Shown here: in pieces, positions 976 to 60,501 of the stretch
Layout of the letters: every line of letters starts with the position of its first letter
Position numbering within the stretch: position 1 is the stretch's first letter
Assembly: GCA_964441335.1 (NCBI GenBank)
Contig: CAYTUI010000001.1
Location: 961-64,960 of the forward strand
DNA: 64,000 nt
Reading direction: 5' to 3'
Source: an uncultured Gammaproteobacteria bacterium
GTDB lineage: Bacteria; Patescibacteriota; Patescibacteriia; UBA1558; 2-01-FULL-52-15
Position numbers and translations under genes: made by a program
The notes under the pieces: model-generated
Seen by the model: only the letters and a program-made list of their open reading frames with translations
Databases searched by the model: none
What the model was told of the DNA's origin: nothing

Positions 976-1602
976 ATGAAAAGAGCAGAGGTTGTCGCTT
1001 TAATTATCGTTATTCTGGCCTTTATTTTGGGCTGGTATTTTTACCCGTTATTACCGGCGCAAACGGCCTCCCATTGGAATGCGGCCGGGCAGGTTGACGG
1101 TTATATGTCCGGTTTCTGGGGAGCTTTTTTAATGCCGGTAGTGGTCTTGGGTATGTGGCTGATGTTTTTTATCATCCCGCGCATTGATCCTTTGAAAAAC
1201 AATATTGAAAAGTTTCGGAAATATTTTGATGGTTTCGTAATTTTGATTTTGTTGTACATGATCTATATTTACGGTCTGACGATTGCTTGGAACCTTGGTC
1301 AGCAGTTAAACATTGTGCTCTGGATGACTCCGGCCATGGCAGTGTTGTTTTATTTTATCGGAGTTATGATGAAACACACAGAACGGAATTGGTTTGTCGG
1401 GATTAGAACTCCTTGGACTTTAAGTAGTGATAAGGTTTGGGAAAAGACTCACCGTTTGGCTGGCTTGATGTTTAAGATCGCGGCCGTTGTAAGTTTATTG
1501 GGAGTGTTATTTCCCGATCAAGCAATTTATTTTATTTTAATTCCGATAGCCATCGCCGGACTTTTTCCAGTTATTTATTCTTATTTTATTTTTAAAAAAT
1601 AA
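976..1602 (+). CDS. SdpI/YhfL-family (DUF1648-like) integral membrane protein
   Basis: Four or more TM segments; conserved HW..G and GIRTPWTLSSDKVWEKTHR motif typical of the SdpI immunity-protein family. Confidence 0.55.
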   Translation: MKRAEVVALIIVILAFILGWYFYPLLPAQTASHWNAAGQVDGYMSGFWGAFLMPVVVLGMWLMFFIIPRIDPLKNNIEKFRKYFDGFVILILLYMIYIYGLTIAWNLGQQLNIVLWMTPAMAVLFYFIGVMMKHTERNWFVGIRTPWTLSSDKVWEKTHRLAGLMFKIAAVVSLLGVLFPDQAIYFILIPIAIAGLFPVIYSYFIFKK

Positions 1603-1606
1603 TTAT

Positions 1607-1954
1607 ATGGCTAATAAAGCTTTTGATGATTTTGATAAAAAAAAGATTGGTTTCGGTAATAAATTCAGATCAGGCCAGGGTTATTTCCAGAGGACCGGCT
1701 TGGACGGCGCTTTCAAACGACTTAAAGACCCGTCTTATGGTGGAGTGGCTAAGAATCTGTCTTCACAAGATATTGATGCATTCAAGAAGATGCTGGAGGC
1801 TAAACTCAAAAGTAAATACGATTACAGCAAGGGTTTGAATTGGCAGGACAGAAGGGATATGACTCATGTACTGGAAACTTGGGTACGGGCCGGAAAAATT
1901 ACCAGAGAGGACATGGCTGATTTTGAAGAAATTATCGGCAAGTTGTCAGACTAA
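1607..1954 (+). CDS. Hypothetical protein (115 aa), first gene of the dnaG-rpoD transcription unit
   Basis: ORF with good coding periodicity and Lys-rich composition. No recognisable motif. Sits where rpsU usually is but does not resemble S21. Confidence 0.5.
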   Translation: MANKAFDDFDKKKIGFGNKFRSGQGYFQRTGLDGAFKRLKDPSYGGVAKNLSSQDIDAFKKMLEAKLKSKYDYSKGLNWQDRRDMTHVLETWVRAGKITREDMADFEEIIGKLSD

Positions 1955-2278
1955 AGATTTGACTATTTTTGGACAAGGTGTTAATAAATAAGCGTTTGCT
2001 AAGGAAGCTCATCACGTGAGTACGAATACGTAGCTCGCTGCTAACTCACAATCAGCGGCGACTTTTGTTCCGTCCGAGCAAAGTCTGACGATTACGGTCG
2101 TCAGGGGCTGCCGAATGGGCATGGGGCTCCTTTCCAGACTGCAGATCGAGCTGCGGTTTGACGTTGAGCAGAACGTTACCCCAAGTATGAACTGCCGGAA
2201 GTACCACACATGATCAATGGGGAAAGAGGCATTCAGGCCGAATTCCTGCTACGGGGTCTGGCTCGGCCTTAGCAAATT

Positions 2279-2319
2279 GCGCCTTCTGCACTGCTCTATG
2301 CGGAAGGCGCTTTTCTTTG
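2279..2319 (+). terminator. Rho-independent terminator (GCGCCTTC...GAAGGCGC plus T-tract)
   Basis: 8-bp GC stem with 16-nt loop followed by TTTTCTTT; closes the GC-rich structured region 1955-2330. Confidence 0.6.
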
Positions 2320-2353
2320 ACTTTAGACCTGTTTCAGATTAAACTAGGCACAT

Positions 2354-4144
2354 ATGACGCCAATTGAGGAAATAAAATCACGTCTGGATATAGTGGATAT
2401 TATCGGCGGCTATTTTCCGCTCAAGCAGTCAGGCACCAACTGGAAGGCTAACTGTCCGTTTCATCAGGAAAAAACGCCGTCTTTTATGGTTTCCAAAGAT
2501 AAGCAGATTTGGCATTGCTTTGGCTGTAATGAAGGTGGTGATGCTATTTCCTTTGTGCAAAAATATGAGGGTTTGGAATTTTCCGAGGCTTTAAAAATGC
2601 TGGCTGACAAAGCCGGTGTTATTTTACCCGATTTTAAAACCGGTGATCAGAGTTTTAAAAAAAATATTCTCTGGGAATTAAATGAGCAGGCTCTGAAGTA
2701 TTGGCAAAATATTTTAAATCAGGAAACCCCGAGCGCTGTTAAGACACGTGATTATTTACATCAAAGAGGTCTAACGCCGGAAACAATTACCCAATGGTCT
2801 TTGGGTTTATCTTCAGAAAAATGGGATGGTCTTTATAATTATTTGAAAGAAAAAAAATACCAAGACGAGGATATTAATCAGTCGGGGTTAATAATCAGGA
2901 AAGACAGTAAGGTTTTTGATCGTTTCAGACAACGTTTAATGTTTCCGATTCGTGACGGTCAGGGCAAAGTAGTTGGTTTTACCGCGCGGACTTTGATGGG
3001 CTTTGTTTTTGAAGGTGAAGATTTTGGCGGTAAGTATGTCAACACTCCACAGACCGCAGTTTATAACAAGAGCGCTATTCTTTATGGTTTGGATTTTGCC
3101 AAACAGGAAATTAAACGACATGATTATGTAATTGTTGTGGAAGGCAATATGGATGTCATCATGTCGCAGCAGGCCGGAGTAAAAAATGTGGTAGCTGTAT
3201 CTGGTACCGCTCTGACCCCAGATCAATTGAGAATAATTAAGAGATATACCAATAATATAATTTTATCTTTTGACGCTGACGCGGCCGGCTCGCAGGCGAT
3301 ATACAAAAGTGGAATAATTTCCGCGGCGGACTTTGATATGAATGTTAAAGCTTTAATTTTGGAAGGCGGTAAAGATCCGGCTGACATAGTTAAGGCAAAT
3401 TCGGAAGATTGGAAGGCTTTAATTAAAAAAAGTATTCCAATTGTGGATTTTTATTATAGTGAAATATTTAAACGAGTTGATATTAACCGCGCTGATCATA
3501 AAAAAATTGCGGTTCATAAAATATTGAGCATTTTGGCGATGCTGAAGGATAAGGTGGAGCAGGATCATTACATCAGGAAAATTGCCGATGATTTGAATAT
3601 CTCCTCACAAGTTTTGTGGGAACAGTTGGCCAAGTTAAATCGGCAGAATTCTTCGCAGGTTGGTGAGGTAGTGGGAGTAAAGACCAAACTTGCGGACGAC
3701 AGGGTTGATTTATTGAGTCAGACGATTTTGGCATTGGTTGGTTCATATCCAGCCTGTTTGCCGGCTTTAATAGATAAGGTAGAACCGGAGGTCTTTTCTT
3801 TGGAGCTCCAAGACCTTTACAAAAAGATAATAATCTATTACACTAAGAACCAATCTGACGATTTAAAGGGGCTTGGTACTGCCTTAGATAGTCAACAATT
3901 GAATCAGTGGAGCAAAATAGTTCACCAGTCTGAAGAATTTTATAATGATTGGGATGAACAACAGCTGGTCAAGGAGTTTGAGCAGTTATCCAAAAGATTG
4001 CTCAAGCGCTGGTTGCAAACGCGACTTAAAGCTCTGTCTCAAAGGATTGAGGCGGCCGAGCAGGCTGGTTTGCAGGAGGATGTTGACAGTTTAACCTTAG
4101 AATTTAGCGATTTGAGTAAAAAACTCTCTGAATATTTATCTTAA
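2354..4144 (+). CDS. dnaG: DNA primase DnaG
   Basis: CHC2 zinc finger (CPFHQEKTPSF...WHCFGCNEGGDAISFV), TOPRIM region (VVEGNMDV, SFDADAAG); followed by rpoD. Confidence 0.95.
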   Translation: MTPIEEIKSRLDIVDIIGGYFPLKQSGTNWKANCPFHQEKTPSFMVSKDKQIWHCFGCNEGGDAISFVQKYEGLEFSEALKMLADKAGVILPDFKTGDQSFKKNILWELNEQALKYWQNILNQETPSAVKTRDYLHQRGLTPETITQWSLGLSSEKWDGLYNYLKEKKYQDEDINQSGLIIRKDSKVFDRFRQRLMFPIRDGQGKVVGFTARTLMGFVFEGEDFGGKYVNTPQTAVYNKSAILYGLDFAKQEIKRHDYVIVVEGNMDVIMSQQAGVKNVVAVSGTALTPDQLRIIKRYTNNIILSFDADAAGSQAIYKSGIISAADFDMNVKALILEGGKDPADIVKANSEDWKALIKKSIPIVDFYYSEIFKRVDINRADHKKIAVHKILSILAMLKDKVEQDHYIRKIADDLNISSQVLWEQLAKLNRQNSSQVGEVVGVKTKLADDRVDLLSQTILALVGSYPACLPALIDKVEPEVFSLELQDLYKKIIIYYTKNQSDDLKGLGTALDSQQLNQWSKIVHQSEEFYNDWDEQQLVKEFEQLSKRLLKRWLQTRLKALSQRIEAAEQAGLQEDVDSLTLEFSDLSKKLSEYLS

Positions 4145-4147
4145 TCT

Positions 4148-5413
4148 ATGGTAGGTAAAAAACATAACACCAAGAAAATTTTAAAAAAAGTTGCCAAAAA
4201 GAAAATCGCCGTTAAAGCTAAGAAGAGTTTAAAAACTAAGGCGGCTAAAAAGATTATCACCGGACGCTCGGCAATAAAGAGTCCGGCGAAGATTAAGTTA
4301 ATGCCGGCCAAGAAGTTGATTTTGGAACAGGAGACTGTTGACTTCTTAGAAAAGAAAGGAGCTTCCCGCGGTTTTATTACTGAAGATGAGGCTTTGCGGG
4401 TTTTTGTTGATTTGGAAAATCACGTTCAAGAGTTTGAAGATTTTTTGGACGCTTTGGAAAAGAGCAGTATCCAACTGATTAGTATGGACGGCGGTATTCT
4501 GGATTTATCCAGCAAGGAGAAGTCCAATTCTGTTTTGAGTAAATTTGGTATTGCTGGAGATCAAAAGCGTTCTGATTTAGCTGACATTTCTGCTGACTCC
4601 ATCCAGATGTATTTACGGGAAATCGGTAAGGTTCATTTGCTGACTTCGGAAGAGGAGATCTCCTTGGCCAAGCGTAAGGAAAAGGGCGAGCTGGAAGCCA
4701 GACGTCGTTTGGTGGAAGCTAATTTGCGATTGGTAGTCAGTATTGCCAAAAAATTTACCGGCCGATCATTGACATTGTTAGATTTAATTCAAGAGGGTAA
4801 CATTGGTTTGTTCAGAGCCGTAGATAAATTTGATTACCGCAAGGGTTATAAATTTTCCACTTATGCTACTTGGTGGATCAGGCAGGCTGTCACCAGAGCT
4901 TTGGCTGATCAGTCCAGAACAATCAGAATCCCCGTCCACATGGTGGAAACCATCAATCGTTTTCAGCAGGTTCAAAGACGTTTGATTCAGGATTTGGGAC
5001 GCGAACCATTGCCCGAAGAAATTGCTTCAGAAATGGGTGAAGATATTGATAAAGTCCGACACATTATTAAAATTTCACAGGAGACAGTATCTCTGGAAAC
5101 TTCGGTCGGAGATGACGGTGATGACGATAGCACCTTAGGAGATTTTATTGAGGACATAAAGACCATTACTCCTGATAGAGTCGCCTCCTTGCAGTTATTG
5201 AAAAATCATGTTAATGCAATAATCAGTGATTTAAGTCCCAGAGAGCAAAAGATTTTGGAAATGCGTTTTGGGCTGAAAGACGGTATTGCTCATACTTTGG
5301 AAGAAGTCGGTCAGGAGTTTGGTGTTACCAGAGAGCGAATCAGGCAGATTGAGGCTAAAGCTTTGGAAAAGATTAAGCATCACCGGAGTATGAGGAAGTT
5401 GAAGGATTATTAG
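4148..5413 (+). CDS. rpoD: RNA polymerase sigma-70 factor RpoD with Lys/Ala-rich histone-H1-like N-terminal tail
   Basis: Regions 2-4 motifs ([48 protein letters not shown], region 4 HTH). First 60 aa are KKxAKK repeats. Confidence 0.95.
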
Positions 5414-5530
5414 GTTAGTGAGTAGTTTGTAGTGAGTAGTGAGTAGTTTGCCCCGCCATTTCTTTATAATTATATGGTTAGCGGGATAGGAGTAGTTAGT
5501 AGTTTAGGGTTTAGAGTTTAGGATTTATAA
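5414..5530. repeat. GTAG-rich low-complexity tract (GTGAGTAGTTT / TAGTAGTTTAGGGTTTAG)
   Basis: Tandem degenerate GTAG/TAGTTT units seen directly; same style recurs at 8160-8230, 12500-12560 and 52570-52640. Confidence 0.7.
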
Positions 5531-5554
5531 TTTGCAGGCGTTAGCCTGCTACGT

Positions 5555-5631
5555 CGCGGGGTAGAGCAGTCAGGCAGCTCGCCAGGCCCATAACCTGGAG
5601 GTCGCCGGTTCAAATCCGGCCCCCGCTACCA
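5555..5631 (+). tRNA. tRNA-Met (anticodon CAT), initiator-like (1:72 mismatch C.U, GG/CC in anticodon stem), CCA encoded
   Basis: Cloverleaf read directly: CGCGGGG-TA-GAGC..GCTC, anticodon loop CCCATAA, T-arm GCCGG-TTCAAAT-CCGGC, 3' CCCCGCTACCA. Confidence 0.8.
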
Positions 5632-5720
5632 CGCCATTCGCGAATGGCGTGGGCTACCCACATCGTTCCCGAACGACATGGGCTACCCATCACGCCATTC
5701 ACGAATGGCGTGAGTCCCCC
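5632..5720 (+). repeat. REP-like hairpin array directly abutting the tRNA-Met 3' end
   Basis: Perfect palindrome ACGCCATTCGCGAATGGCGT (centre TCGCGA), then two GGGCTACCCA-flanked hairpin units (GTGGG-CTA-CCCAC) and a second palindrome CACGCCATTCACGAATGGCGTG. Units contain CTAC and echo the tRNA GCTACCA end. Confidence 0.6.
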
Positions 5721-5811
5721 ACTTTATTATGGTGTCCACAATTTTACGCGCAGCTCGAGAACGATATAGTTTATTAAATAATTATCACAATAAACAGGGA
5801 AACCTGTTTTT

Positions 5812-6078
5812 ATGTTTTATTTTTATATTATACAAAGTCAAAAAGACAAAAATTGGTTCTATAAGGGTCAAACCGGCGATTTGCGAAATAGAATGCGGCG
5901 CCATCATAGTGGGATGGTTAAATCAACCGCTAAATATTTGCCAGTTAGATTGGTTTATTATGAGGCTTATATAACTAGGAGAGCCGCTAAACAAAGAGAA
6001 TGGAGTGTAAAATATCATGGATCGGTTTCTGTCCCGTTACTTAAAAGAATAAAGAGAAGCCTTGAAGATAAGGACTAG
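5812..6078 (+). CDS. GIY-YIG nuclease superfamily protein (UPF0213/YhbQ-like), 88 aa
   Basis: FYFYIIQSQKDKNWFYKGQTGDLRNRMRRH matches the GIY-x10-YIG..R..H core; small stand-alone gene between two tRNA-Met genes. Confidence 0.7.
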   Translation: MFYFYIIQSQKDKNWFYKGQTGDLRNRMRRHHSGMVKSTAKYLPVRLVYYEAYITRRAAKQREWSVKYHGSVSVPLLKRIKRSLEDKD

Positions 6079-6120
6079 GACTTGAAAAAATGCCTATTTA
6101 AGGTATGCTTTCTATGTTTT

Positions 6121-6197
6121 GGCGGGGTAGCTCAGTTGGTTAGAGCGCAGGACTCATAAGCCTGAGGTCGTGGGTTCGATTCCCACCCCCGCTACCA
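6121..6197 (+). tRNA. tRNA-Met/Ile2-type (anticodon CAT), elongator-like, CCA encoded
   Basis: GGCGGGG-TA-GCTC AGTTGGTTA GAGC, anticodon loop CTCATAA, T-arm GTGGG-TTCGATT-CCCAC, 3' CCCCGCTACCA. Confidence 0.8.
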
Positions 6198-6310
6198 CGT
6201 CGCTCGCGAGCGACGTGGGCTACCCACATCGTTCCCGAGCGACGTGGGCTACCCACATCGTTCCCGAGCGACGTGGGCTACCCACATCATTGCGAATGGC
6301 GTGAGCCACC
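6198..6310 (+). repeat. REP-like tandem array: palindrome CACGTCGCTCGCGAGCGACGTG plus 2.5 copies of 29-nt unit GGCTACCCACATCGTTCCCGAGCGACGTG
   Basis: Direct tandem repeats seen in sequence, no spacers (so not CRISPR). Each junction forms hairpin GTGGG-CTA-CCCAC containing CTAC. Confidence 0.65.
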
Positions 6311-6391
6311 CATAATGATTATAAATTAAATAAAGTATAACAGATGCCCGTAAGGGCTGTTTTTTTATTTCTGAACATGTATACTTGGCTA

Positions 6392-6958
6392 ATGAAGAAC
6401 TTTAAACAAATTTTCTTAGCAATACTTGTGCTAATTATTGCTAATGGCTGCAGTTTATTTATCAATAAATCCAATGTTCCGGTTAAACCGATCATGCCGG
6501 TTAATTCGCCGACTAACTCTAAAATATTAGACTTGAGTAACCAGGGTTTAACATCTATTAAGGCTGAACAGTTTAATGATGCTAATGTTACTGAGCTAGA
6601 TGTTTCTAATAATAATCTGATAGGGTCGCTGCCGGCGGAGGTCAGACGTCTCCCGGCGCTACAAATAATTAATGCTTCACACAATAATTTTACCGGTATA
6701 CCGGCGGAAATAGGTCAACTTAAAAATTTAATAAGTTTGGATTACAGTTACAATAATTTGGACACCATGCCGGATGAATTACAAAATCTTGTGGGCTTGA
6801 AGTATTTGTCGCTGGCCAATAATGACTACCAAGAAGTGCCGTTTGAGATAGCCAGTTTGAAAAATTTAAAGGTCTTGGATTTGGACGCTAATCCGATTCC
6901 GTCAGATCAGATTGATAAATTGCGTCAGGCTTTGCCCCAGACTGATATAAAATTTTAG
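6392..6958 (+). CDS. Leucine-rich-repeat (LRR) lipoprotein
   Basis: Signal peptide with lipobox LIIANGC; about seven LxxLxLxxNxL repeats (LDLSNQGLTSI, LDVSNNNLIGSLP, INASHNNFTGIP, LDYSYNNL, LSLANNDYQEVP, LDLDANPI). Confidence 0.75.
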   Translation: MKNFKQIFLAILVLIIANGCSLFINKSNVPVKPIMPVNSPTNSKILDLSNQGLTSIKAEQFNDANVTELDVSNNNLIGSLPAEVRRLPALQIINASHNNFTGIPAEIGQLKNLISLDYSYNNLDTMPDELQNLVGLKYLSLANNDYQEVPFEIASLKNLKVLDLDANPIPSDQIDKLRQALPQTDIKF

Positions 6959-8159: not shown

Positions 8160-8460
8160 TTAGAAGATAGGGAATAGTAGATAGAAGATGGGGAATAGGA
8201 GATGGAAGGTAGGGGATGGAAGATAGAAGATTGGGGTTGCCCCTCGTTCTTAAGTTCTTTGGTTCTTTCGTTCTGTGTTCTTCGGTTCTTTTGTTTTTAC
8301 GTTCTTTAGTTTTTAGATTATAGGTATTAGGTTCCCTCGTTCTTACGTTCTTAAGTTATTTTGTTCTTCGGTTCTTCAGTTCTTAAGTTCTTTAGTCCCT
8401 CCGTTCTTCCGTTCTTTCGTTCTTCGTTCTTCAGTTTCCCCGTCCCTCTGGTAACAAATG
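8160..8460. repeat. Composite low-complexity intergenic element: AGAAGATAG/TAGTAG purine tract followed by about 30 degenerate GTTCTT(A/C)(A/G) heptamer-like repeats
   Basis: Seen directly; the same two-part architecture recurs at 12500-12650. Confidence 0.7.
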
Positions 8461-12348: not shown

Positions 12349-12435
12349 GCCGCGGTGGCGGAACTGGTAGACGCGTAGGTCTCAAAAACCTATAGGAGTT
12401 CTCCTGTGAGAGTTCGAGTCTCTCCCGCGGCACCA
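12349..12435 (+). tRNA. tRNA-Leu (anticodon CAA), type II, CCA encoded
   Basis: GCCGCGG-TG-GCG..CGC, anticodon stem TAGGT/ACCTA with loop CTCAAAA, long variable arm, T-arm GAGAG-TTCGAGT-CTCTC, 3' CCGCGGCACCA. Confidence 0.8.
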
Positions 12436-12499
12436 AATGGAAGTAATATACACAGGTTCGCCTGCCCGCCGTAGCTTTAGCGTAGGCGGGACCCCGACC

Positions 12500-12650
12500 A
12501 GCGGCACCATTTAGTTAGTAGCTAGTAGTTAGTAGTCAGTAGCTTGCAGCCAGTAGCTTATGGAGTAGAGCTCGTAGTCCTTAAGTTCGTCAGTTCTTAA
12601 GTTCATCGGTTCATAGGTTATTAAGCATTAAGACTTAATACTTAATTATT
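12500..12650. repeat. Composite GTAG-rich (AGTTAGTAGCTAGTAG...) then GTTCTTAAGTTC-rich low-complexity tract
   Basis: Seen directly; same architecture as 8160-8460. Confidence 0.7.
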
Positions 12651-30875: not shown

Positions 30876-31060
30876 TTGCTGGCTGGTTGGCAGACTGCTT
30901 GGGATGTTAAGCCGGGCTTGTGGGAGGGTCACGTCAGTGACCCTCCCACACCTAATTTTTTAGAAACTTGTTCCCAACAATCGTTGGAGACAAATTTCTA
31001 ACCTTGATTTTTTTGAGGTTATGCACCTTTCCAAGTCAACAACAAACAAGGAGGTAGCCG

Positions 31061-32459: not shown

Positions 32460-32491
32460 CCGCAGGGACGAGCAGCAGCTCGTCCCTGCGG
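32460..32491 (+). terminator. Hairpin terminator CCGCAGGGACGAGC-AGC-AGCTCGTCCCTGCGG
   Basis: 14-bp perfect stem; followed by AT-rich spacer with a second palindrome CCTTGTTTCAAACAAGG. Confidence 0.55.
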
Positions 32492-34838: not shown

Positions 34839-34970
34839 AGCTGCTACAAGCCGGTGGTCACCAGCAGGTGACCACCGGCCCTTACTTCAGCCTTGTCATA
34901 AAGAAAATGAAAGGGTTGAAGAGAGGCTAGTTCATTCAATGTCTATTCTAAAACCAAGGAGGTGCTCTAA

Positions 34971-35927: not shown

Positions 35928-36057
35928 TTAGGTGGAGGACGGGGCATCTGCGTCGGCGCAGATGCCCCCTTTCCCGAGGTCTTATCATCTATAGATAAGG
36001 TCTTAGGAGAGTTCAGTTCTTTAACACGCAACCATCTAAAACCAAGGAGGAGAGGGA

Positions 36058-40132: not shown

Positions 40133-40208
40133 CGGGGTGTGGCGCAGTTGGTAGCGCGCATGCATGGGGTGCATGAGGCCGTGGGTTCAAGTCCCGCCAC
40201 CCCGACCA
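40133..40208 (+). tRNA. tRNA-Pro (anticodon GGG), CCA encoded
   Basis: CGGGGTG-TG-GCGC AGTTGGTA GCGC, anticodon stem CATGC/GCATG with loop ATGGGGT, T-arm GTGGG-TTCAAGT-CCCGC, 3' CACCCCGACCA. Confidence 0.8.
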
Positions 40209-40369
40209 AGTGATTCTGAAAAAATTCACAGGAGATGTAGTTGCGGGTTTCGCCCAAAGGGCGACCCGGTCGAATGACCGGGCAAGTCCTGTCACCCCGA
40301 CCATTCGACTTTGTTCAGCTTAGCTTGACCAAGAAAATTATATAACAATATTAAATCTCGTTTGATGGA

Positions 40370-46111: not shown

Positions 46112-46148
46112 GGCCGGACAACGACATGTTGTCCGGCCTCTTTTTTTA
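46112..46148 (+). terminator. Rho-independent terminator (GGCCGGACAACG-ACAT-GTTGTCCGGCC plus T9)
   Basis: Perfect 11-bp stem then TCTTTTTTTT; marks end of GC-rich island 2. Confidence 0.75.
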
Positions 46149-52559: not shown

Positions 52560-52680
52560 TTGAATTATGGATTGAAAGAGGTAGTAGGAAGTAGGTAGTA
52601 GGAAGTAGGTAGTAGCTAGTAGGTAGTAGGTTATCGCCCAGTTGGTGGTGGGCGAAGGTTGTGGGCGGGGGTTCCGATTA
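52560..52680. repeat. GTAG/CTAC-rich low-complexity tract plus terminator hairpin (CGCCCA..TGGGCG on minus strand) downstream of topA
   Basis: AGGTAGTAGGAAGTAGGTAGTAG... repeats seen directly. Confidence 0.65.
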
Positions 52681-54965: not shown

Positions 54966-55556
54966 TCAATCAGCATCGTTAGAATTATTTCGGTCTTTTA
55001 GCCAATTAATCGGGTTATTTTTAATGTACATACGAATTTTATATAGAGATTCTTCATTCCGTATAATATGATCGTGGAATCGCGATTGCCAGAATTGTCG
55101 TCCGAGGGTGCCGCGGTGCTGGTTAATGCGGCGGGCCGAAAATGTTTTAAAACCGCGAATTATTTCTGATACCGAATAGCGCCCGGTTGGGTAATCGTTG
55201 AAATGACGTTGATTTAATGCAAAACCCGTGGAGGCGGGTTTGAAACCCGCCTCTACAGGACGCCGGTTGCAATTATACCGGGCGTTAATGCGGATTATTC
55301 CATGAACGTGGTTCGGCATTATGACAAATGCGTCCAATCGGCAATCGCAATAATGTTTTGTTAAATCACGCCAGCATTTTTTCACGATTTGTCCCAATGG
55401 TGATAGTTGCATTTTACCGTTAACAATTTGTCCTAAATCGCAGATTCTGTTTTTGACGCAAATGGTTATAAAATAATATCCTTGATTTGAATAATCCCAA
55501 TATGGTAAACGTGTTGATTCGATTCTATATCTGCCTAGGTATTTTGAATATTTCAT
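54966..55556 (-). mobile_element. IS200/IS605-type Y1 (HuH) tyrosine transposase, RAYT/YafM-like, carrying an in-frame GTAG+hairpin (REP-like) insertion
   Basis: HuH motif MPNHVHGII and C-terminal FWQSRFHDHIIRNEESLYKIRMYIKNNP (YafM-like catalytic region). Perfect palindrome GAGGCGGGTTT-G-AAACCCGCCTC + CTAC at 55231-55256 lies inside the reading frame. Gene sits between topA and dprA. Confidence 0.75.
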
Positions 55557-60052: not shown

Positions 60053-60127
60053 GTCACGCCTCTCGCGAGAGGCGTGACTAATGTTTACGAGCGACGGGAT
60101 TGACCCAGCACCTCGCGAGGTGCTGGG
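60053..60127. promoter_or_regulatory. Two perfect GC-rich palindromes centred on TCGCGA (26 bp and 24 bp) in the mfd upstream / divergent promoter region
   Basis: GTCACGCCTC-TCGCGA-GAGGCGTGAC (60053-60078) and CCCAGCACC-TCGCGA-GGTGCTGGG (60104-60127). Confidence 0.5.
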
Positions 60128-60501
60128 TTGACACAAATCTCAATTTATGATAGCTTCGGCTGTTAACCTTTGGTTCTTATATCTACTCGCCAGGCAGTGA
60201 TGGAAATGACACCCCCTCCTTGTTGTTGAAATCATTGCGCTAAGGCCGCGGTCTTCATGGCTTTAGGTCTTGGCTTTTGCTGGTGGGTAGTTATAAGTGT
60301 CAGAGGTTTTTATTTTTGTTAATTTTTATTACTTCATTAATGACATTGAAGTTGGAAAATTAAGACGGAAAATTATTAAACTGAGAATAGATTATTTGTA
60401 ATTTTGGGTTGACTTTTTCCAAAAAAAGGAGTATAATTAATCAATAAGACTAAATTTTGTGGATAATTGAGAACACAAAATAATACTACGCGAGCGCACC
60501 C

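Follow-up and report, generated by a model that had tools for sequence, protein, structure and literature searches.

Palindromes and short tandem arrays at tRNA 3' ends accompany an SLX1-like GIY-YIG nuclease gene in Patescibacteria and may bound a compact selfish cassette

We analysed a stretch of 64,000 nucleotides (nt) of contig CAYTUI010000001.1 (assembly GCA_964441335.1), here called the window, which belongs to a population from a groundwater metagenome and carries a gene for a small GIY-YIG nuclease between two tRNA(CAT) genes, each of them running directly into an array of short hairpin units. The gene order is dnaG, rpoD, tRNA-fMet, array 1, GIY-YIG, tRNA-Met, array 2, a terminator and the gene of a leucine-rich repeat (LRR) protein. 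A preliminary description of this DNA had already reported two tRNA(CAT) genes followed by hairpin arrays, and both parts of this were confirmed by ARAGORN, Rfam and Tandem Repeats Finder (TRF). The first tRNA (5555-5631, forward strand; Rfam score 57.8 bits) is initiator-like, as had been proposed, with a C1xU72 mismatch and A11:U24. Its further peculiarities are a C33 replacing the usual U33 (anticodon loop CCCATAA) and an anticodon stem whose base has only two of the canonical three G-C pairs. The second tRNA (6121-6197, forward strand), found by the same two programs, is an elongator Met or Ile2, and both genes have their 3'-terminal 12 nt, CCCCCGCTACCA, in common.

At both tRNAs the CCA forms the first three bases of a perfect 24-nt palindrome, in agreement with the preliminary description. 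The first palindrome, CCACGCCATTCGCGAATGGCGTGG (5629-5652), is centred on TCGCGA and takes in the CCA of tRNA-fMet and the next TGG, and the second, CCACGTCGCTCGCGAGCGACGTGG (6195-6218), does the same at tRNA-Met and contains the core CGTCGCTCGCGAGCGACG. Perfect palindromes with arms of at least 10 nt occur four times in the 64 kb, all of them centred on TCGCGA, while dinucleotide shuffles lead one to expect 0.03. Array 1 (5625-5722, forward strand) starts with GCTACCA, the final 7 nt of the tRNA, which is copied again after each hairpin; the palindrome with its TGG and the units follow, and the array ends in GTCCCCCAC. It is irregular, as the perfect palindrome is succeeded by an imperfect unit consisting of GCTACCCA and an imperfect hairpin (5653-5681) and then by GCTACCCA-T with a near-perfect palindrome centred on TCACGA (5690-5713). 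Array 2 (6191-6312, forward strand) again begins with GCTACCA and the palindrome with TGG, continues with two identical 29-nt units (6219-6247 and 6248-6276) and a hybrid unit (6277-6305), and ends in CCACCCA. TRF assigned a 29-nt period to both, with 3.0 copies and 70% matches for array 1 (5625-5712) and 3.4 copies and 94% matches for array 2 (6191-6288). The two arrays can be aligned in register with about 80% identity over about 110 nt.

The 29-nt unit GGCTACCCACATCGTTCCCGAGCGACGTG is found in the window in two exact copies and one copy with two mismatches (expected: 0). It can be described as a 26-nt hairpin (CCCAC...GTGGG) with a CTA linker, or alternatively as an 8-nt copy of the tRNA end, GCTACCCA, followed by a 21-nt imperfect segment that derives from the palindrome and ends in TGG. 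The mini-hairpin GTGGG-CTA-CCCAC that had been pointed out earlier is present as a sequence, but it is merely the junction of two adjacent hairpin feet. The proposed echo of the tRNA 3' end GCTACCA was borne out, and the same grammar recurs at other tRNAs as described below. The arrays had also been judged not to be a CRISPR (clustered regularly interspaced short palindromic repeats) locus, and rightly so, as the units abut and any one array has the same or almost the same segment between its repeats; no CRISPR family was found in the window at the Rfam gathering score. A derivation of the unit from the T-arm of tRNA-Met was considered and rejected: a GTGGG/CCCAC stem is common to both, and the alignment score is no better than with control tRNAs. 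As tRNA-fMet and tRNA-Met have their last 12 nt in common and are followed by homologous arrays, two long direct repeats, each made up of CCCCCGCTACCA and an array, enclose the GIY-YIG gene together with the body of tRNA-Met.

Several putative expression signals are found around these elements, all on the forward strand. Between array 1 and the nuclease gene, consensus scans gave a weakly supported promoter-like site (TTTACG-16-TATAGT, 5743-5770) and an equally weakly supported terminator-like hairpin (5792-5809) with a T-run overlapping the ATG of the nuclease gene. Another promoter-like site (TTGAAA-16-TATGCT, 6082-6109; a consensus match only) lies directly 5' of the second tRNA. The transcript of tRNA-Met and array 2 is likely to be closed by an intrinsic terminator at 6346-6366, which we recognised from the hairpin GCCCGTAAGGGC and its T-run and for which the terminator scan gave no call. 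The mechanical start of the LRR open reading frame (ORF; 6344-6958), position 6344, overlaps this terminator, and the Joint Genome Institute call starts at window position 6392. Folded as RNA, both arrays are more stable than expected (z = -4.4 for array 1 and -7.2 for array 2). The predicted folds retain the tRNA cloverleaf and show strong nested trailer hairpins from the CCA onward, with the CCA sequestered.

The gene between the arrays (5812-6078, forward strand) encodes a predicted stand-alone GIY-YIG nuclease of 88 amino acids (Pfam PF01541, E = 1.6e-11). In an alignment of 14 homologues the motif residues Y5, Y17, R27 and E51 are invariant and H31 is conserved in more than 90%; these are the residues expected of an active GIY-YIG site. 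A profile search against the PDB listed the stand-alone UPF0213 proteins BH0048 and EF2693 first and then SLX1 (1zg2, which is BH0048, E = 1.4e-9; 1ywl, 4e-6; SLX1, 3e-3; UvrC, 0.5). The AlphaFold2 model of the protein (predicted local distance difference test score 94) has a three-stranded sheet with helices. It is nearest to At-HIGLE, Slx1-Slx4 and the UPF0213 protein BH0048, with I-TevI and UvrC far behind: in Foldseek 7wme, 6seh and 1zg2 were matched with E values of 2.5e-3 or lower versus 0.44 for I-TevI and 0.8 for UvrC, and 7wme and 6seh reached a probability of 1.0 with a TM score of about 0.65. The protein thus has the motif and the domain of the GIY-YIG superfamily, and judged by the model and the profiles it is SLX1/HIGLE/UPF0213-like and not I-TevI-like. 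These matches place the enzyme in a branch whose characterised members cut branched DNA and Holliday junctions.

The family comprises at least 692 clusters at E ≤1e-8, and all members carrying a source name come from Patescibacteria of the candidate phyla radiation (CPR), for example Uhrbacteria and Peribacteraceae. Neither NCBIfam nor PHROGs has a name for it. A collection of viral contigs held one distant GIY-YIG relative, so that the family is essentially absent and the element is not phage-borne there; two matches to a degenerate palindrome pattern in the same collection are chance hits inside GC-rich coding DNA. No second copy or pseudogene was detected when family members were compared with the window by tblastn.

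Homologues of the 88-residue protein (56-69% identical) were traced to their contigs and further members were added by profile search, which gave ten independent genomic contexts: the window and the loci L047, L048, L049, L052, L055, L057, L066, L069 and L071. As is expected of a homing cassette, the nuclease gene stands beside a highly conserved target gene. In nine of the ten loci the GIY-YIG gene is preceded on its own strand, at a distance of 8-320 nt, by a tRNA gene, namely tRNA-fMet in the window, tRNA-Trp in L047, L052, L057, L066 and L069, tRNA-Gln in L048 and tRNA-Ser in L049 and L071, while L055 has no tRNA and shows a relic, ...CGAACGACGTGG-CCTGCCA, 110 nt upstream of the gene. From the tRNA density we estimate that an adjoining tRNA would be expected by chance for about 1.5% of genes. 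The other flanking genes differ and are unrelated from locus to locus. The preliminary description had located the GIY-YIG gene correctly between the two tRNA/repeat blocks; with hairpin grammar and nuclease gene occurring together in ten of ten loci, it is no bystander.

At all nine tRNA loci the CCA leads directly into a perfect TCGCGA-centred palindrome of 18-26 nt (at L047 only the 18-nt core is perfect). The last three bases of the palindrome are TGG (GGG at L047), and next comes a copy of the last 7-8 nt of the local tRNA, whichever tRNA this is: GCTACC(C)A after tRNA-Met, CCAGCCA after tRNA-Gln, CCTGCCA after tRNA-Trp and, at the two tRNA-Ser loci, CTCCGCC and CACCGCCA. Array 2 of the window, L048, L049, L052, L057 and L071 share an identical core, CGTCGCTCGCGAGCGACG. 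Tandem arrays are also present in L052 (4 x 32 nt), L069 (3 x 25 nt) and L071 (2 x 32 nt), where every unit ends with the terminal heptamer or octamer of the host tRNA, and the units of L069 and L071 also end with the right arm of the palindrome, GCGACGTGG. In most loci a terminator-like hairpin and a -10-like box intervene between the array and the nuclease gene, and in L047, L052, L057 and L066 they are placed as in the window; in L071 the nuclease ATG follows 8 nt after the last tRNA-end copy. This grammar is conserved across CPR genomes and tRNA identities and is linked to the nuclease gene.

In three loci the far end of the cassette is closed by a further module, in which a sequence resembling a tRNA 3' end is followed by the palindrome and a repeat of that end: L047 (3724-3749, after GAGCCCCTGCCA), L048 (3549-3574) and L057 (2162-2185, after the end of a pseudo-tRNA-Trp, with a third copy at 3022-3047). 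In L066 GAGCCCCTGCCA is found beyond the gene without a palindrome, and in the window the right-hand boundary is formed by a real tRNA, tRNA-Met. L057 contains an additional gene of a second GIY-YIG subfamily (82 amino acids, 1053-1301), which stops 5 nt short of tRNA-Trp; 387 nt upstream, at 917, 12 nt of the tRNA 5' end are repeated (ATAGGGGCGTGA). The region 900-1310 of L057 could thus be a mirror-image cassette at the tRNA 5' end, with nuclease genes flanking the tRNA on both sides. The tRNA-Trp trailer of L047 (2720-2800) contains a poly-C/poly-G tract (CCCCCCCCCCCGCGGGGGGGGGGG and surroundings), which may be an assembly artefact or an extreme palindrome. Automatic gene calls extend into the arrays, as seen for the GIY-YIG calls of L071 (2001-2339, 112 amino acids) and L048 (3001-3444, 147 amino acids), which begin within hairpin arrays or the tRNA.

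In the preliminary description the arrays had been assigned to repetitive extragenic palindromic (REP) elements in clusters like bacterial interspersed mosaic elements (BIMEs), mobilised by a REP-associated tyrosine transposase (RAYT) encoded about 49 kb away. The units are indeed short, GC-rich, extragenic, clustered hairpins with CTAC at their foot, related TCGCGA palindromes occur at a third locus, and a Y1_Tnp protein is encoded at 54966-55556. At the position of CTAC, however, other genomes have CCTGCCA, CCAGCCA, CTCCGCC or CACCGCCA, the last 7-8 nt of their local tRNA, so that CTAC is not a family motif but the acceptor end of tRNA-Met. The arrays thus lack the conserved GTAG/CTAC of REP elements and are instead strictly attached to tRNA 3' ends with target-end copies. 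Within the 64 kb covered no high-copy dispersal is seen: the 29-nt unit is confined to the two tRNA loci and related palindromes add one more locus, giving three in total. The RAYT/IS200-like ORF does exist (54966-55556, reverse strand), but several features speak against its being linked to the arrays: it lies in a dprA-ORF-topA string, overlaps the dprA stop codon, is separated from topA by an AT-rich spacer and has neither hairpins nor unit copies at its flanks. With 67.3 bits it stays below the cut-off of 80 of the NCBIfam model for REP-associated tyrosine transposases, and it looks domesticated or at least outside any recognisable element. The hairpin grammar on the other hand accompanies GIY-YIG genes in all ten genomes examined. 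The assignment to REP elements and a RAYT is therefore largely refuted by the sequence comparison and we give it hardly any credence, even if the units were probably rightly taken to belong to something mobile.

In genome and metagenome contig collections, neither of which includes the source contig, a search for pairs of unit junctions spaced by one period (TGGGCTACCCAN{10,30}TGGGCTACCCA) gave 11 genome and 24 metagenome matches, all of them unrelated tandem or coding repeats; the 11 genome matches had no tRNA nearby and none of the 24 metagenome matches had the 29-nt spacing. As the unit junction is the tRNA-Met end, such a probe is lineage-specific and the palindrome core would be a better one.

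Looking up the exact protein recovered the same locus from several assemblies, many of which, like many contigs, break inside the arrays. Unit-number polymorphism had been suggested as a check, and it was found: array 2 has one middle unit in L008 and two in the window. L003 differs by a single-nucleotide polymorphism (SNP) in one hairpin loop of array 2. The most informative sequence is L005, which comes from a 59-kb contig and is 99.93% identical to window positions 1148-5631 over 4,484 nt. Its three mismatches all fall in the T-arm of the tRNA (5606, 5609 and 5618) and include a compensatory swap of one T-stem pair; the L005 tRNA allele (L005 4408-4484) has A54 besides this swapped pair. 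L005, the one allele seen to lack the cassette, may reflect co-conversion as known from homing, with three SNPs in the last 26 nt of the tRNA (breakpoint region 5606-5631, forward strand) and none in the preceding 4,458 nt. Beyond 5631 no homology is left, and from the first base after the CCA of tRNA-fMet L005 continues with unrelated sequence that is absent from the window and contains neither a palindrome nor a nuclease gene in the 149 nt from the tRNA to the contig end. A divergence that starts in the 3' part of the tRNA is the pattern of foreign DNA arriving with its own copy of the gene end.

The same breakpoint would be expected at an attL site. tRNA 3' ends are classical integration sites, and the arrays might be remnants of integrase-borne islands, with the repeated tRNA ends as att-site cores of repeated integration and excision; in the window, tRNA-Ser, tRNA-Leu and tRNA-Pro likewise have incomplete copies of their 3' parts downstream. 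Repeats of the tRNA end are therefore present, but no integrase or other recombinase is encoded in the cassette or its neighbourhood, in the window or in those related loci with gene calls, the repeats are just 7-8 nt long and recur every 25-32 nt, and what is conserved alongside them is a palindrome with a GIY-YIG gene instead of a recombinase. We consider this origin very unlikely.

The palindromes themselves point to a function at the DNA level. Among the 16 sites, which represent 8 different sequences, variation of the arms affects three internal positions and the outermost pairs, and all changes are mirrored. Seven of ten pairs change on both sides and none on one side only, 98.8% of the alignment cells are paired and 0 of 500 shuffles match this, a covariation that is partly circular because the non-tRNA sites were chosen by a scan for perfect palindromes; the nine palindromes next to tRNAs, which were reached via the protein, are all perfect. 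No G-T intermediates occur among the variants, and in every unit other than the first the symmetry decays while one arm and the tRNA-end copy are kept. Both observations argue for a DNA-level role and against a conserved RNA helix, and conceivable explanations are cruciform formation, a symmetric site for a protein or a way of copying by which perfect palindromes arise.

These data also bear on a possible host function, in which the hairpins would serve as processing, protection or termination signals in the 3' trailer of the tRNA precursor, with the CCA in a stem, and the small GIY-YIG protein would be a factor of RNA or DNA metabolism co-located with tRNAs. The hairpins are indeed part of the trailer, precede a terminator-like hairpin and, in the predicted folds, pair with the CCA, the proteins cluster by tRNA type, and a hint at RNA metabolism comes from some prokaryotic proteins in which an Slx1-like domain is joined to a TrmH-like tRNA methyltransferase (PMC1564403). 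A host signal would hardly be present in one and absent from the other of two strains with 99.93% identity, with the breakpoint inside the tRNA, nor would it be expected among unrelated flanking genes in every genome and at only two of the six tRNAs of the window. Furthermore, the tRNA-end duplications and far-side copies have no obvious RNA role, the perfect Watson-Crick symmetry without G-U intermediates points to DNA, and the distal units lose pairing but keep one arm. A host function thus appears improbable to us.

The reading we lean towards, albeit with considerable reservation, is that the arrays are boundary structures of a compact selfish nuclease cassette specific to tRNA 3' ends. 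The palindrome would then, on balance, probably be the cis site of this cassette, and the arrays would probably stem from amplification between the copies of the tRNA end, driven by breaks or by slippage. Its parts are the palindrome starting from the CCA, the copied last 7-8 nt of the tRNA, usually a terminator and a promoter, and the gene for an SLX1-like GIY-YIG protein of 85-90 amino acids; in the window it fills the gap between tRNA-fMet and tRNA-Met. According to the proposed mechanism the nuclease would break DNA at or near tRNA 3' ends, either by recognising the conserved T-arm, as the phage enzyme SegB does, or by cutting the cruciform that the perfect palindrome can extrude, in the way SLX1-type enzymes act on four-way junctions. 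Branched DNA and Holliday junctions are substrates of SLX1 and HIGLE, and a cruciform extruded by a perfect palindrome has this very structure. Recombinational repair would copy the cassette into the tRNA locus and bring along a replacement for the 3' part of the tRNA. The direct repeats of the 7-8-nt tRNA end could act as microhomologies for slippage or break-induced amplification, by which units of tRNA-end copy and palindrome arm would expand and contract to give the tandem arrays, with the tRNA-proximal unit staying a perfect palindrome and the distal units decaying.

A free-standing nuclease cassette at a conserved gene end is a known kind of arrangement. SegB of phages T4 and T6 is a free-standing GIY-YIG nuclease encoded in a tRNA cluster that cuts tRNA genes at RAWTSGAAC, the complement of which reads to us as T-loop-like, and its breaks drive tandem segmental amplification via microhomology (PMC13096335). 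Like the window gene it stands beside tRNA genes, but it belongs to the I-TevI-like homing branch and has a DNA-binding region, whereas the window protein is a bare 88-residue domain of the SLX1 branch. SegB is moreover a phage gene without a reported grammar of palindrome and tRNA end, in contrast to the chromosomal CPR family, and its amplified units measure about 700 bp versus 25-32 nt in the CPR arrays. Mobile open reading frames (mORFs) of fungal mitochondria (Allomyces atp6; Glomus atp9 with a GIY-YIG ORF) insert at the 3' ends of conserved host genes and bring a replacement 3' end, while the native end is displaced downstream as a partial duplicate (PMC3630166). This matches the replaced T-arm relative to L005 and the far-side tRNA-end copies; differences are their organellar protein-coding targets, duplications of tens to hundreds of nt, and the lack of a conserved palindrome and of tandem arrays. 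Together, SegB and the mORFs make the proposed break, replacement-end and amplification steps plausible. SLX1, At-HIGLE and the UPF0213 proteins BH0048 and EF2693 are the best sequence and fold matches of the window protein, but they are regarded as vertically inherited cellular repair factors (PMC1564403) and no linkage to tRNA genes or palindromes has been described for them. Finally, non-intron insertions with GIY-YIG genes are known from CPR rRNA genes and were judged unlikely to spread by homing (PMC11270868). They resemble our loci in the radiation concerned and in having GIY-YIG genes in or next to structural RNA genes outside introns, but lie inside rRNA genes at poorly conserved sites, and neither a palindrome nor a duplicated gene end was reported.

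The proteins can be grouped by the tRNA they follow. Those linked to tRNA-Trp are 67-80% identical to each other and the tRNA-Ser-linked pair is 74% identical, while the fMet- and Gln-linked proteins show at most 65% identity to any other member. As far as such comparisons can tell, this fits target-specific lineages.

Further palindromes of the window are found away from tRNAs. Two perfect 26-nt palindromes centred on TCGCGA (60053-60078 and 60103-60128) are located in the non-coding gap of 500 nt that precedes mfd, on either side of a half-arm, CGAGCGACGGGA (60088-60099). Neither a tRNA nor an Rfam family or a GIY-YIG gene is found in the vicinity. The near-repeats GTCAACCCA and GTCAATCCC on the reverse strand flank one of the two palindromes. 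They may be solo members of the same palindrome family, which is uncertain. Rfam searches, at the gathering score over the window and at E values up to 10 around 60 kb, gave only tRNAs and noise.

In an alternative reading the 21-nt palindrome is a tiny non-autonomous insertion element, similar to a miniature inverted-repeat transposable element (MITE), which the GIY-YIG protein mobilises in trans. It would insert after ...NCCA and duplicate 7-8 nt of the target, and the arrays would reflect successive insertions into the regenerated target. At nearly all palindrome sites the 7-8 nt in front of the palindrome are in fact repeated after it in direct orientation, regardless of their sequence; this holds also for pseudo-tRNA ends and possibly for the non-tRNA site 60104-60137. 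The core is identical across genomes with nucleases of only 55-80% identity, and the tRNA-proximal palindrome is always perfect and the distal ones degraded, as if the newest insertion adjoined the target. On the other side, units are identical within an array but differ between arrays, with 18, 21, 24 or 25 nt of unrelated left-hand sequence, which is better explained by local tandem duplication than by repeated insertion. Repeated insertion alone also leaves unexplained why the palindrome always takes the first position, and the palindrome at 60053-60078 has no flanking repeat. To our knowledge no GIY-YIG enzyme acts as a transposase, and overall we regard a MITE-like element as unlikely.

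A bolder version, which we find doubtful but a little less so, combines both ideas: a bare SLX1-type GIY-YIG domain might mobilise the 21-nt perfect palindrome together with the cassette encoding it, as a new class of prokaryotic mobile DNA. The enzyme would recognise the cruciform and the ...NCCA end of the tRNA and make 7-8-nt target duplications, so that a structure-specific nuclease would serve as transposase or homing enzyme for the smallest known insertion module. The mirror-image subfamily of L057 might in the same way attack tRNA 5' ends.

Several points weigh against the selfish cassette, apart from the partial circularity of the covariation. Classical homing alone does not create a 7-8-nt duplication right after a palindrome; this copy of the target resembles a target-site duplication, and the 21-nt palindrome may therefore itself be the insertion module. 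The SLX1 branch is regarded as cellular and not selfish (PMC1564403), and old vertical inheritance at fixed loci could explain why the proteins group by tRNA type. As the protein served to find the loci, the frequency of the palindrome grammar without a nuclease cannot be inferred from them. In the window, array 2 has the GIY-YIG gene upstream and not downstream, and the palindromes at 60 kb have none nearby. L005, the sole empty allele, ends 149 nt past the tRNA and a larger rearrangement is therefore possible. Cleavage by the nuclease and mobility of the cassette are predictions from sequence and analogy.

A full-text literature search found no description of a tRNA-linked GIY-YIG cassette or of its palindrome, and the cassette is apparently undescribed. 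Its unusual features are the SLX1-branch enzyme, the palindrome fused to the CCA of the tRNA and the mini-arrays punctuated by the target end. If our preferred reading of a selfish cassette is correct, the very small genomes of CPR/Patescibacteria would turn out to carry one more selfish element, and a widespread one, and it would provide a first biological context for stand-alone bacterial SLX1-like (UPF0213-type) proteins, for which no described function was found in the literature. Moreover, tRNA 3' ends would be invaded by nuclease cassettes besides integrase-borne islands, and recurrent assembly breaks and mis-called ORFs beside tRNA genes in CPR metagenome bins would be explained. The grammar of palindrome and tRNA end is a simple signature that can be searched for in genomes, and the substrate of the enzyme is directly testable.

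Second, incomplete copies of the 3' part also occur downstream of other tRNAs in the window (regions 13-230, 12349-12510 and 40133-40310). tRNA-Ser, which has no encoded CCA, is followed at +103 by an exact 18-nt copy with CCA inside a degenerate pseudo-tRNA of about 70 nt, tRNA-Pro by a degenerate copy of about 40 nt ending in CACCCCGACCA (about +59 to +95) and tRNA-Leu by CCAGCGGCACCA at +62; tRNA-Asn has no such copy and upstream controls show nothing. These copies may be scars of earlier invasions at tRNA 3' ends. GC-rich hairpins that have perfect 11-bp stems and loops of 4-6 nt and are not centred on TCGCGA were observed at 30921-30948, 32462-32489, 34851-34878, 35941-35968 and 46112-46138, clustering between 30.9 and 36 kb. 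Intergenic tandem heptamers and octamers rich in stop codons (TAGTGAG, GTTTAGG, TAGCTAG, AGGTAGT and GTTCTTTA) are located at 5416-5527, 8161-8436, 12512-12619 and 52579-52631, several of them adjoining tRNA genes, and in L069 TAGTTAC repeats (1650-1700) lie directly 5' of tRNA-Trp.

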